Assembly: GCA_964426185.1 (NCBI GenBank)
Contig: CAYRPF010000083.1
Coordinates: 1-13,004, forward strand
Length of the DNA stretch: 13,004 nucleotides
Origin: an uncultured archaeon
GTDB lineage: Archaea > Asgardarchaeota > Lokiarchaeia > Sigyniarchaeales > Promethearchaeaceae
Direction: 5' to 3'
Below the pieces are notes generated by a model. It was not told the DNA's origin, did no database searches, and was given only the letters and a program-made list of their open reading frames with translations. Shown here one piece after another: positions 3,446-5,021 of the stretch. The position numbers and the translations under genes are program-made. Position 1 is the first letter of the stretch. The number at the start of each line of letters is the position of its first letter.

Positions 3446-4141
3446 TTAAATTTTTTGTAAATTTTTGTAGGAAAACAAAATCCTTTGAATTAAGGTCAAT
3501 GTGCAAAAAGCGGTATAAATTAGAAATAGGACAGGAAAAACCCACAATGTTTGATGTCCATTACCAAACTTTTCTTCGATTGCAAAAACGGCCCATTCTA
3601 TCACGTAAATAAAGATTAATATGAAAAATCTCTCCGCTCGCTCCATAAAACCGATTCCTTTCATAGAAAGACCTTCGATTTCTGCTCGTGAGCGTGTATA
3701 AGATATCATAAGAATAATCGTGAGTGAAATAAATCCGATCAAATAATTTATTGTTTTATCCCATGGCCAAATAATTCCCCCAACCATTAACCCTATCAAA
3801 GAAACTGCATCAGCGATGCGATCTAAAGTGCTGTCTAAAAATGCACCATATTTGGAAACCATGCCTGAATTTCGTGCCACCGTGCCATCCAGTACATCTA
3901 TATAACCTGAGATGAAGAATAGCCATGGAGGTACACAAGCCCACCACCACCAGATATTATTGGTAATATAGGAATAATTATAGAGAAAAACATTAGGAAA
4001 TGCGAAAGCAACACCTGCTAATACAGACAATATAAATCCAAATAGGCTGAGCTGGTTTGGAGTAATTTTTTTTTTGATGCACCATCTACTCGGGCCATTT
4101 ACGAATTTAGGTAAAAGATATCGAAAATTGTTAAGAACCAT
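3446..4141 (-). CDS. CDP-alcohol phosphatidyltransferase (archaetidylinositol-phosphate synthase / PgsA-like)
   Basis: Family motif DVLDGTVAR...G...D...DRIAD, plus TPNQLS, SYTRSRAE and GFMERAER, and several transmembrane segments. ATG at 4141 (MVLNNFR) is preferred over the track's TTG at 4153. Confidence 0.93.
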   Translation of the reverse strand: MVLNNFRYLLPKFVNGPSRWCIKKKITPNQLSLFGFILSVLAGVAFAFPNVFLYNYSYITNNIWWWWACVPPWLFFISGYIDVLDGTVARNSGMVSKYGAFLDSTLDRIADAVSLIGLMVGGIIWPWDKTINYLIGFISLTIILMISYTRSRAEIEGLSMKGIGFMERAERFFILIFIYVIEWAVFAIEEKFGNGHQTLWVFPVLFLIYTAFCTLTLIQRILFSYKNLQKI

Positions 4142-4158
4142 GAAATATCCCAACTTTT

Positions 4159-4493
4159 AAATAGGATTACTTTAACATGAATCTGTTTCCGTGTTTTAAC
4201 CTTTGCGATCATAGCTTGGAATTTCCAAATACTTGCGCAACTTCTTCTCTAAACCCGGAAAGGTATGATTCACGAGGGTCCGATATTTCTTGTCTCAGAA
4301 AAGGGTTGCTGACAATTCCTTCATTGCAAGCTCAAGGCTGTCTCGGGAATGAGCCTAAGTTCTGAAAATGAGAAATATCAACTCTGAGGTATGGTCAGGA
4401 TGCATGCTCGAATCAATCATCCGCGAATTTCTCGCGTCCCGTTCGTCCTCGGTATCACATGACCGAAAAACTCCCCATCATCGTTCCCTATCT
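4159..4493 (-). ncRNA. Candidate ~335-nt structured non-coding RNA or 5' leader, family unassigned
   Basis: About 44% GC (hand count, 4161-4490) versus ~24% in the 6481-6720 spacer. No credible ORF. There is an 8-bp terminal helix (4486-4493 with 4159-4166) and about ten nested internal helices, whose non-Watson-Crick pairs are mostly G-U when read on the minus strand. Confidence 0.65.
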
Positions 4494-4604
4494 TATTAAA
4501 AAGAGCTTCACATTTATTTTTTCTCCTATGTAATATATAGATCATATTCCGATAATTCCTACATAGTAATATCATCTATAGCGATCAAGTATTTCTAAAA
4601 ATTT

Positions 4605-5021
4605 ATGGCGATTCCTCAAAATGAGATACATAATAAGTATAATGGCCATAATATTAGTGATAAATTCTCTAAAAAATTGGATAATGCAGATTCAGGTTTA
4701 TTGACTCGCCATATGCTTCAAAAATTTACCAAATCAATCAAACAATGTTTCCCTACTTGCGTGGCCACAGTTATGGCAGATCCTCATGGTTTTCCTATTT
4801 ATTCAGAGATTGAAACTGGTATGGATGAAAATTTATTGGCTTTGTCTGCAGTGGAAGAACGGCGTAAGTTTTTGGATCTTCATGAATACCATAAGATAGT
4901 AAAACCTGTGGGCAAGGATATTCGACTGCTTATTCTGCTAAAGAAAGCTCGTCAAAATTACGTTCATTATGGAACATTTGAAAGAATTTTTAAAAATCAA
5001 ATCAAAAATGTGAAAGAATAA
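4605..5021 (+). CDS. Roadblock/LC7 (MglB)-like protein, divergent
   Basis: A helix is followed by CVATVMADPHGFPIYS, then MDENLLALSA helix, then beta strands IVKPVGKDIRLLILL and a C-terminal helix. This matches the roadblock a-b-b-a-b-b-a pattern with its 'D-x-x-G-(F/L)-P-I-x-S' turn. Confidence 0.6.
   Translation: MAIPQNEIHNKYNGHNISDKFSKKLDNADSGLLTRHMLQKFTKSIKQCFPTCVATVMADPHGFPIYSEIETGMDENLLALSAVEERRKFLDLHEYHKIVKPVGKDIRLLILLKKARQNYVHYGTFERIFKNQIKNVKE

Follow-up and report, generated by a model that had tools for sequence, protein, structure and literature searches.

In the genome of a Harpocratesius-like Lokiarchaeon (Asgard), a 450-nt gap lies between a phosphatidyltransferase gene on the minus strand and an ORF on the plus strand (4605-5021), and part of it is filled by a structured, conserved non-coding RNA (ncRNA) read from the minus strand. 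The question raised by this locus is to which kind of RNA this molecule belongs. A first-pass annotation, made from the sequence alone, had proposed a discrete, unassigned structured RNA preceded by a promoter-like element, to be read as a new large ncRNA class, a very divergent RNase P-like RNA or a structured leader. All the positions given here are those of the window, that is, the whole stretch of 13,004 nt that was analysed.

Locus and boundaries of the RNA

We considered the following elements of the locus:

~4489 to ~4175, minus strand: ncRNA gene of ~315 nt, likely a three-armed H/ACA-like sRNA
4511-4523, minus strand: AT-rich, TATA-like putative promoter element, ~27 nt upstream from the conserved 5′ end of the RNA
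3446-4141, minus strand: CDP-alcohol phosphatidyltransferase gene (Pfam PF01066, E = 4.5e-16), downstream neighbour, outside the RNA

The boundaries ~4489-4175 are a best estimate, the transcript contigs (from relatives) giving neither the strand nor the exact ends; in a genome of the same genus, the conserved stretch corresponds to positions 4176-4501 of the window. Of the ~335-nt discrete RNA described in the first-pass annotation, the discreteness was retained and the length was reduced to ~315 nt. The terminal helix drawn there between 4486-4493 and 4159-4166 was discarded: its 3′ strand is not conserved and is located beyond the 3′ end suggested by the RNA contigs of the orthologue, and its 5′ GGG pairs instead with the CCC at 4278-4275.

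The GC content is 0.435-0.455 within the ncRNA and 0.265 at 4500-4699, in agreement with the difference (~44% vs ~24%) noticed earlier. The AT-rich run previously placed at 4512-4523 was also recovered, and the relatives of family f1 carry a TATA-like box at an equal distance from the RNA 5′ end; judging from its sequence, the run at 4511-4523 would act as the promoter of the ncRNA. No conserved ORF is common to the homologues of the ncRNA, which is single-copy in the genome, and this rules out a MITE. The start of the phosphatidyltransferase gene conserved in the relatives is the ATG at 4141-4139 and not the TTG at 4153.

Conservation, covariation and expression

In the 13 sequences of family f1, 87% of the cells are paired, against 36-47% when the partners are slid, and 45 of the 83 pairs of the ncRNA are compensatory, a number reached by none of 500 shuffles. 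In an independent set of sequences from family f3, the same architecture was recovered de novo by RNAalifold. The folding energy of the single sequence, which the first-pass annotation had suggested comparing with controls, does not stand out (z = -1.35 for the minus strand, -0.95 for the plus strand). The structure is supported by the comparison of relatives and not by thermodynamics.

Covariation in the relatives supports several helices of the first-pass annotation: the two stems of the central arm, 4371-4381 with 4280-4290 and 4360-4366 with 4294-4300; the CGCGAG hairpin, formed by 4431-4436 and 4422-4427; and, in the 3′ arm, the stem between 4267-4274 and 4176-4183 together with the UUUCCG, GUUU and UUGCG pairs and the cap. 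Two other hairpins (4462-4469 with 4446-4453 and 4418-4421 with 4399-4402) were not confirmed, and the two small central hairpins, which never covary, gave way to a helix (4350-4346 with 4319-4315) and a K-turn. Two further central-domain helices that we tried, CUC/GAG and UGCU/AGCA, never covaried and were replaced.

The covariance model R1, built on the central domain, found the RNA in four f1 genera only. We considered this range as a limit of sensitivity, because model R2 finds arm A (described below) at full length in three Asgard families (f1, f3 and f17). All three arms together were found in f1, in f3 with genome G004, and at one f17 locus.

As regards expression, metatranscriptome contigs from three studies have their coverage confined to the orthologous RNA of Promethearchaeum (MK-D1, L041 1795-2114), and one of them, 321 nt long, consists of the orthologous RNA and nothing else. 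The search of Rfam with the window and 8 homologous loci, both at gathering thresholds and at E = 10, returned only chance echoes of C/D or lncRNA families. The unassigned structured RNA is real and expressed, expression being read from the contigs of the Promethearchaeum orthologue, and the discrete ncRNA with a promoter-like element of the first-pass annotation is borne out.

Structure of arm A

The first of the three arms is composed of the following elements:

4380-4485, minus strand: arm A, putative H/ACA motif 1 nested within a C/D-like K-turn
4485-4473 with 4389-4380, minus strand: K-turn A
4464-4460 with 4397-4393, minus strand: lower stem
4459-4446 and 4408-4398, minus strand: pocket
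4445-4439 with 4416-4409, minus strand: upper stem
4438-4437 and 4418-4417, minus strand: GA dinucleotides of K-turn B
4436-4422, minus strand: cap hairpin
4447-4452, minus strand: putative 5′ guide strand, core CGAGG, invariant in 30 sequences
4402-4408, minus strand: putative 3′ guide strand, core GCA, at least 90% conserved
4390-4392, minus strand: ANA box 1 (AUA), directly 3′ of the lower stem

In the 30 sequences of the three families, all 21 pairs of arm A are compensatory and 89% of the cells are paired, against 28-39% when slid. The letters conserved in at least 90% of the sequences are the GAs of the K-turns, CGAGG.C, G.GCA.A, A.A and the D-like GAG. The A.A of ANA box 1 reaches the same level, and the box is mostly ACA in f3 and f17. 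The number of layers in the upper stem is 6-8, according to the way non-canonical pairs are counted, and the lower stem has 5-7 bp followed by a loop and a further 4-bp stem.

On top of the upper stem there is the signature of a K-turn: a variable cap is flanked by a GA on its 5′ side and by a 3-nt bulge followed by GA on its 3′ side. Its AUGA is conserved in at least 90% of the sequences, and the G.A pairs, recognised here by their signature, would be stacked on the upper stem. At the base, K-turn A has a box C-like element at the 5′ end and a box D-like element after the ANA, with a canonical CUGA in one f3 genome.

An archaeal H/ACA sRNA carries 1-3 motifs; a K-turn or K-loop lies in the apical part of each, and the ANA that follows the lower stem on its 3′ side is 14-15 nt away from the target uridine (PMC2377435). 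The arms of the Asgard RNA share one plan: above a lower stem come a large internal loop, an upper stem of ~6-8 layers, an apical K-turn and a small cap, and an ANA stands on the 3′ side of each arm. In arm A we found the hairpin, the ANA, the ANA spacing, the K-turn signature and the bipartite target complementarity of archaeal H/ACA motifs; precisely, the ANA and the guide base beside the predicted target U are separated by 15 nt in both the window and MK-D1, and by 14 nt in f3.

Some features of the fold speak against the H/ACA reading. The ANA boxes are located within internal loops of a closed structure instead of occupying free linkers or the 3′ end. From the pocket to the G.A pairs, the upper stems count 6-8 layers, whereas those of Pyrococcus have 5-6 bp, and the lower stem of arm A has 5-7 bp, against at least 7 bp in the Pyrococcus descriptor, whose rules come from one genus (PMC2377435). 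In addition, the ANA of arm B is 17 nt, not 14-15 nt, from the upper stem in the window, and that of arm C is UCA in Promethearchaeum.

Predicted target of arm A

We searched the 16S and 23S rRNAs of MK-D1 for the best H/ACA-type site of arm A. All nine non-redundant guides pointed to the same 23S site, with scores of 8-10, a level reached by none of 100 position-permuted controls (top control 6.7) and, under relaxed rules, by none of 40. The 5′ guide pairs just 3′ of an unpaired UU of the 23S, and the 3′ guide just 5′ of it. The arm A target was checked only in relatives because the assembly containing the window, which also has no 16S gene, has no 23S target site; in five genomes of families f1 and f3 the site is identical. 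In the genus of the window, the predicted duplexes are short, of 5 bp for the 5′ guide and 3 bp for the 3′ guide (5 bp if one U.U mismatch is allowed).

The predicted U, the first of the unpaired UU and at about position 2639 of the MK-D1 23S, corresponds to E. coli 2496, P. abyssi Psi2588 and yeast 25S Psi2865, in the loop of the peptidyl-transferase centre; for the yeast position we assume an offset of 369 from E. coli 2496. The offset of 92 between P. abyssi Psi2588 and E. coli 2496 is implied by a remark on RluE/B/C in PMC2377435. In P. abyssi, the sRNA that guides this pseudouridine is Pab40/Pf7/Afu4, through the first of its three motifs (PMC2377435), and yeast Psi2865, in the peptidyl-transferase centre and conserved in human, is guided by snR46 (PMC8307265). 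We found no pseudouridine mapping for these organisms in the literature searched.

The partner proteins Gar1, Nop10, Cbf5 and L7Ae are encoded in the genome. In the proposed mechanism, L7Ae would bind the K-turns, while the ANA box, the lower stem and the pocket would provide the docking site for Cbf5, Nop10 and Gar1. The strands of the arm A pocket would pair with the 23S on both sides of the unpaired UU in the peptidyl-transferase-centre loop, and the first U would thus be placed in Cbf5 and converted into pseudouridine. Both the protein binding and the modification itself are what we infer; the gene, its structure and conservation, the RNA contigs of an orthologue, the guide-target complementarity and the presence of the protein genes are what the analysis shows.

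Arms B and C and helix H1

The remaining elements are the following:

4282-4379, minus strand: arm B, a K-turn arm between arms A and C
4379-4371 with 4290-4282 and 4366-4360 with 4300-4294, minus strand: arm B outer stems
4313-4299, minus strand: arm B conserved loop strand
4350-4346 with 4319-4315, minus strand: arm B upper stem, 6/6 pairs changing on both sides
4344-4343 and 4322-4321, minus strand: GA dinucleotides of arm B K-turn D
4342-4326, minus strand: arm B cap
4291-4293, minus strand: ANA box 2 (ACA), after the arm B inner lower stem
4275-4278, minus strand: 3′ strand of helix H1, pairing with the RNA 5′ AGGG (4489-4486) and enclosing arms A and B
4176-4274, minus strand: arm C, H/ACA-like, with the same arm recovered de novo in f3 (RNAalifold)
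4274-4267 with 4183-4176, minus strand: arm C closing stem
4261-4256 with 4191-4186 and 4254-4251 with 4196-4193, minus strand: arm C lower stems
4250-4241 and 4202-4197, minus strand: arm C pocket
4240-4236 with 4207-4203, minus strand: arm C upper stem
4234-4233 and 4210-4209, minus strand: arm C K-turn C
4232-4214, minus strand: arm C cap
4184-4186, minus strand: ANA box 3 (ACA), with the conserved 3′-pocket GUUA starting 14 nt upstream

Arms B and C are built like arm A, and their pockets are very conserved. Arm B is also present in f3, G004 and f17. Its ANA box 2 is ACA or AUA in f1, ACA, AUA or AAA in f3 and ACA in f17, and in f17 and f3 the distance from this box to the upper stem is 14-16 nt. 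ANA box 3 is ACA or AUA in Harpocratesius, in genome G008 and in f3. Helix H1 was predicted by RNAalifold in two independent sets; its covariation support is weak because its pairs are nearly invariant, and the 5′ GGG is absent in f17.

For arms B and C we found no rRNA target above the permuted controls, which reached the score in 2/100 and 22/100 cases, respectively (4/40 and 5/40 with relaxed rules), and no tRNA target. Helix 69 is the only rRNA site that fits both conserved strands of arm C; the fit is weak, of 4+4 bp, with a chance of ~0.1-0.4 of arising at random, and arm C may address this helix. The H/ACA target scan of the whole genome of the window was swamped by chance matches in AT-rich DNA.

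Other candidate pairings were dropped. The best relaxed match of arm C, in the 23S leader of MK-D1, is not conserved in Harpocratesius. Antisense pairing of the conserved loops to the 16S/23S loci of MK-D1 and Harpocratesius gave no more matches than shuffles, none of them common between the species, and apparent loop matches ~770 nt upstream from the 23S fall in a non-conserved AT-rich flank.

In eukaryotes, snR30/U17 and snR10 act as chaperones of pre-rRNA folding or processing. The near-invariant loops of arms B and C, retained across Asgard families although all the stems drift, could suggest that these arms are not ordinary modification guides and have another role, which we consider doubtful. 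In such a case, they might be chaperones of this kind for pre-rRNA, or several Cbf5/L7Ae modules might be held in one closed particle; the RNA would then be an Asgard-specific multi-module RNP, going beyond three guides per transcript.

Identity of the RNA and alternative explanations

The locus is likely the gene of a three-armed box H/ACA-type guide sRNA, transcribed from the minus strand under its own TATA-like promoter. We placed the RNA among the box H/ACA guide sRNAs because of its anatomy and of the guide-target match; hence, it is probably a variant of these sRNAs and not the new large ncRNA class envisaged in the first-pass annotation. As an H/ACA sRNA, it is unusually large and tightly closed, and two of its arms have no assigned target.

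Among the alternatives, we considered a new class of large L7Ae-bound RNP RNA, whose K-turn arms would scaffold another activity and in which the H/ACA likeness and the complementarity of arm A to rRNA would be coincidental or vestigial. Such a class would be in keeping with the lack of an Rfam match, with the four K-turn signatures, with the near-invariant loops of arms B and C, for which no target was found, and with an architecture closed by H1 and by the outer stems under the arms, unlike the simple tandem H/ACA hairpins of PMC2377435. Nevertheless, we judged it unlikely, since arm A has the ANA, the spacing, the K-turn polarity and the guide-target pairing of an H/ACA motif, an ANA follows all three arms across families, and the site of arm A is known to be H/ACA-guided in Pyrococcus and yeast.

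K-turn A can also be read as a box C plus a box D, with CUGA in one f3 genome, and weak Rfam echoes come from C/D snoRNAs; as Pab21 carries a C/D motif (PMC2377435), the RNA could be a composite of C/D and H/ACA modules, in which the C/D-like K-turn would recruit Nop5-fibrillarin and guide 2′-O-methylation. This is very unlikely: the ~12 nt upstream from the D-like box are occupied by the ANA and the lower stem, so that no guide is free, and the second K-turn is 35 nt away and not 12. Moreover, the spacers of ~30-35 nt pair with each other, whereas a box C/D sRNA has unpaired guides of 10-12 nt upstream from D and D′, and the Rfam C/D matches all have E >= 0.9, none standing clearly below E ~1.

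A cis-acting structured leader or switch controlling the downstream phosphatidyltransferase-eS26 genes was suggested by their position, on the same strand and with the ATG 34 nt downstream from the RNA in the window, and by a neighbourhood conserved in four f1 genera (g1, g5, g6 and g7), in which the ncRNA adjoins the phosphatidyltransferase gene. We regard this reading, already raised in the first-pass annotation, as highly improbable. In the relatives, the distance to the downstream gene ranges from 70 to 1300 nt, with either 1.3 kb in between or 70-150 nt that contain a separate promoter-like AT-rich stretch; the RNA is on the opposite strand in G004 and 3.6 kb away in G015, the RNA contigs stop at the ncRNA ends, and the ncRNA has its own TATA-like box. 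In genera g2, g3 and g4 and in G015, the region upstream from the phosphatidyltransferase gene is coding and does not contain the RNA.

Finally, the size and loose sequence echoes had pointed, in the first-pass annotation, to a highly diverged RNA of RNase P, RNase MRP or SRP. This has a negligible probability: contig C10 carries matches over the full length of both the RNase P RNA (63 bits, E = 3e-17) and the SRP RNA (82 bits, E = 2e-18), the candidate matches neither RF00373 nor RF01857 even at E = 10, and its 5′ end pairs internally and not with the 3′ end.

Significance

In the literature searched we found no description of an H/ACA guide RNA in Asgard archaea, the closest known relatives of eukaryotes, for which this locus supplies a candidate. 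The assignment to the box H/ACA guide sRNAs makes a testable prediction, that is, the conversion into pseudouridine of the peptidyl-transferase-centre uridine whose modification is H/ACA-guided in Pyrococcus (Psi2588) and in yeast (Psi2865, by snR46). If this were true, Euryarchaeota, Asgard archaea and eukaryotes would have inherited the guiding of the site from their common ancestor, if not from an earlier one. The build is also unusual, with a putative H/ACA hairpin closed by a C/D-like K-turn and two K-turn arms in a compact fold. A new covariance model of this RNA would help to annotate Asgard genomes, in which the Rfam models of RNase P and SRP RNA score below thresholds.

Comparison with known systems

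L7Ae also recognises K-turns in archaeal RNase P RNA. Both this RNA (RF00373) and the archaeal SRP RNA (RF01857) are similar in size to the Asgard RNA; they are present elsewhere in this genome, and the candidate matches neither model.

Yeast snR46 (PMC8307265) addresses the same rRNA position as that predicted for arm A, with the same kind of bipartite pairing, but it follows the eukaryotic two-hairpin plan without K-turns. As for Pab21/Pf1 (PMC2377435), an H/ACA motif and a C/D-type K-turn occur in one RNA, as in the Asgard RNA; in the latter, however, the H/ACA hairpin is closed at its foot by the C/D-like K-turn, which encloses the ANA, and the whole is part of a three-armed RNA. Unlike arm A, Pab21 guides position 891 of the 16S (PMC2377435).

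Pab40/Pf7/Pho40/Afu4 of Pyrococcus and Archaeoglobus (PMC2377435) have, like the Asgard RNA, three hairpin motifs, in each of which an ANA accompanies a K-turn or K-loop at the apex. With respect to Pab40, to which it is likened by description only, the Asgard RNA has extra closing helices (the 5′ GGG with the internal CCC, and the outer stems under arms B and C), ANA boxes in internal loops and longer upper stems, with no target for arm B and a weak match for arm C. Motif 3 of Pab40 targets the loop of helix 69 (PMC2377435), which is also the site fitting the strands of arm C, and motif 1 of Pab40 and, as predicted, arm A address the same 23S uridine.

Genomic context and evidence for a structured RNA gene

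The RNA gene sits on the minus strand, within a 450-nt gap between the following two genes of the window; further upstream in the window are the genes for TFB and Gar1.

One side of the gap, minus strand: CDP-alcohol phosphatidyltransferase gene (PF01066), followed by the eS26 gene
4605-5021, plus strand: ORF of 138 aa without Pfam family, upstream, divergent neighbour of the RNA gene

The mechanical ORF of the phosphatidyltransferase starts at TTG 4153. Alignment with seven relatives gave a conserved ATG (then GTT) at 4141-4139, which in the window leaves only about 34 nt between the RNA 3′ end and the start codon. Homologues of the 138-aa ORF adjoin the RNA in Harpocratesius, L. ossiferum and two relatives' genomes, G002 and G006, with 44-71% identity, and none was seen within 1.4 kb of the RNA in the Promethearchaeum loci. 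The distance from RNA to homologue is about 1.1 kb in the complete H. repetitus genome (locus L004, about 1840-2930) and about 110 nt in the window.

The first-pass annotation had reported a GC-rich stretch, and we obtained GC values of 0.44-0.46 for the RNA against 0.27 for its flanks. The stretch is single-copy in the genome. The same-genus genome, of Harpocratesius repetitus, shows 75% identity across window positions 4176-4501, and other genera show 80-85% over the RNA core; in these matches the RNA is always upstream of the phosphatidyltransferase gene. We found no reading frame common to the RNA homologues.

Folding energy, proposed earlier as a check, was unremarkable for the single sequence (minus strand, z = -1.35; plus strand, z = -0.95). 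Support for a structure comes from comparison. Here the conservation and covariation looked for in relatives were found: in the final structure of 13 sequences, 87% of cells are paired, against 36-47% with the partners slid, 45 of 83 pairs have changes on both sides, and none of 500 shuffles reached any of the structure measures. Comparison supports many helices of the first-pass annotation, but not its terminal helix, nor two of its 5′ hairpins and the two small hairpins of the central part. Its observation of a structured RNA was for the most part real, and the RNA gene concerned is one to which no database model gives a name. No Rfam family matched the window or eight homologous loci, either at gathering score or at E = 10.

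Anatomy of the RNA

Four K-turn signatures were present in the alignment (a 3-nt bulge then GA on one strand, GA opposite); their UGA/AUGA letters are invariant and the surrounding stems drift. The 5′ GGG of the RNA pairs with CCC at 4278-4275, and the chain between and beyond is organized in three arms:

4485-4380, minus strand: arm A (ANA after the lower stem at 4392-4390)
4379-4282, minus strand: arm B (ANA at 4293-4291)
4274-4176, minus strand: arm C (ANA at 4186-4184)

Every arm has, from base to tip, a lower stem, a large internal loop, an upper stem, a K-turn that stacks its G.A pairs on this upper stem, and a small cap. In Pyrococcus, box H/ACA sRNAs contain one to three motifs, each with an apical, L7Ae-binding K-turn or K-loop, a 5-6 bp upper stem, an ANA on the 3′ side of the lower stem and a distance of 14-15 nt between the ANA and the target U (PMC2377435). 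The Asgard RNA follows this plan, and its best interpretation is a box H/ACA guide sRNA that is large and closed and has three arms. Arm A bears an extra K-turn at its base, built like a box C/D pair and having the canonical CUGA as 3′ strand in one genome of a further Asgard family (f3).

In P. syntrophicum MK-D1 (L008/L041) the non-bulged strand of the apical K-turn of arm A is AA and the cap has a long U run paired with A's; this strand is GA in a near-identical metagenome sequence and in all other relatives.

The genome encodes the H/ACA partner proteins Gar1 (within the window), Nop10, Cbf5 and L7Ae.

Predicted target of arm A

The 16S and 23S rRNAs of MK-D1 were scanned with the pocket strands of nine non-redundant homologues. 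A site had to contain an unpaired U-N flanked by two pairings, one with the first bases of the 3′ pocket strand and one with the last bases of the 5′ pocket strand. As a control we used the identical guides with permuted positions. For arm A, all nine guides shared one best site, with scores of 8-10, which beat 100 of 100 permuted controls (best control 6.7) and, under relaxed rules, 40 of 40. The site, UUGC-UU-CCUCGA, is in the central loop of domain V of 23S rRNA, and its sequence is the same in MK-D1, H. repetitus, L. ossiferum, relative G004 and one f3 genome. Between the ANA and the guide base beside the target there are 15 nt in the window, as in MK-D1, and 14 nt in f3.

Neither a 16S rRNA match nor the 23S target sequence was found in the assembly of the window's genome (155 contigs, 92% complete), hence the target site was read in relatives; the rRNA genes of this genome appear unassembled. 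Only 26 tRNAs were found in it by aragorn.

Of the UU, the first U is the predicted target; it lies five bases ahead of the C preceding GAUG, in agreement with the spacing from 2865 to 2870 in yeast. If yeast Um2921 is taken, as we assume, to be E. coli U2552, the offset is 369 and Psi2865 presumably corresponds to E. coli 2496. In P. abyssi, Pab35 makes the pseudouridines made by RluE, RluB and RluC in E. coli (PMC2377435), from which we derived a numbering offset of 92 in domain V; P. abyssi Psi2588 is then also E. coli 2496. For Psi2588, conserved in eukaryotes, the guide is motif 1 of Pab40/Pf7/Afu4, an sRNA with three motifs (PMC2377435); for yeast Psi2865, in the peptidyl-transferase centre and conserved in human, it is snR46 (PMC8307265). 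Arm A is predicted to guide this same pseudouridine.

Distribution and conservation

R1, a covariance model built on the central domain, matched the RNA in four genera of the window's family and in no others. With a second model, of arm A alone (R2), full-length matches were obtained under strict filters in 16 of 127 f3 genomes, as well as in G004 and in f17 (12 of 19), which makes a third Asgard family; this showed that the range of R1 was a limit of sensitivity. Reading onward, arms B and C were also present downstream of the R2 matches, and RNAalifold, given only the f3 set, arrived at this three-arm fold as well; 25 of its 59 pairs are compensatory.

Each of the 21 pairs of arm A has changed in a compensatory way among 30 sequences. 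Conservation reaches 90% or more only in the letters of the K-turn GAs, of both guide cores, of the ANA and of the D-like GAG. Stems that drift around fixed guides and protein-binding motifs are what one would expect of a guide RNA whose rRNA site is invariant.

Arms B and C

In every family looked at, the H/ACA-like plan and the ANA are retained in both arms, and neither arm had a standout target in rRNA, whole-genome or tRNA scans. The arm B loop strand at about 4313-4299 is almost invariant; its 5′ loop strand shows no conservation from family to family. ANA and upper stem are 17 nt apart in the window, against 14-16 nt in f17 and f3.

In arm C, the conserved strands, two of 4 nt each, fit helix 69 of 23S rRNA, whose loop has a universally modified uridine: the first pairs with the loop just 5′ of this uridine, the second with the helix's 3′ strand. 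No other site in the rRNA sense strands fits the pattern, with about 0.1-0.4 such sites expected by chance, and the register varies among families; helix 69 may be considered as a lead only.

Expression in relatives

Logan contigs of four RNA runs were placed on 1.2 kb around the MK-D1 orthologue (L041). Contigs of three metatranscriptome studies cover only L041 1795-2114, one contig, 321 nt in total, being the RNA alone; at the 3′ side, contigs of two studies end at the same base, immediately ahead of a T-rich tract. In MK-D1 and in the window alike, a TATA-like box is present about 27 nt upstream of the RNA 5′ end. The discrete transcript proposed earlier as a check is hinted at in relatives rather than in the window's own organism, by contigs that do not prove strand or ends.

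Alternative identities

The two target-less arms and the closed fold leave some room for a less ordinary role of this H/ACA-like RNA. A structured leader of the phosphatidyltransferase gene, as the first-pass annotation had proposed, is unlikely: between the RNA and the downstream gene relatives show from 70 nt to 1.3 kb (the latter in G006), in G004 the RNA is about 780 nt away on the opposite strand, and in relative G015 the distance is 3.6 kb. In three genera (g2, g3, g4) and G015 (loci L066-L070), where the RNA does not adjoin the phosphatidyltransferase gene, another protein-coding gene abuts that gene upstream; with the G004 arrangement, this indicates that the RNA gene moved relative to it during Lokiarchaeial evolution.

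RNase P RNA and SRP RNA are excluded, since both were found elsewhere in the genome as full-length matches, less than 9 kb apart on another contig (C10):

C10 45377-45665: RNase P RNA (63 bits, Rfam cut-off 84)
C10 54346-54663: SRP RNA (82 bits, Rfam cut-off 96.5)

Both are below the gathering thresholds, so standard annotation would miss them. A MITE-like repeat is ruled out by the single copy. The RNA is probably not a new class either, as had been suggested, being best read as a box H/ACA guide; in a literature search of incomplete coverage we found no description of it.

Comparison with known guide RNAs

The three-armed Asgard RNA is built to the same plan as the box H/ACA sRNAs of Pyrococcus (PMC2377435). 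One of these, Pab21, likewise bears a C/D motif (PMC2377435), as the Asgard RNA has a C/D-like K-turn at the base of arm A. Arm A would share its site with motif 1 of Pab40/Pf7/Afu4 and, in the yeast peptidyl-transferase centre, with snR46; motif 3 of Pab40 targets helix 69 (PMC2377435), the same helix for which arm C is a candidate.
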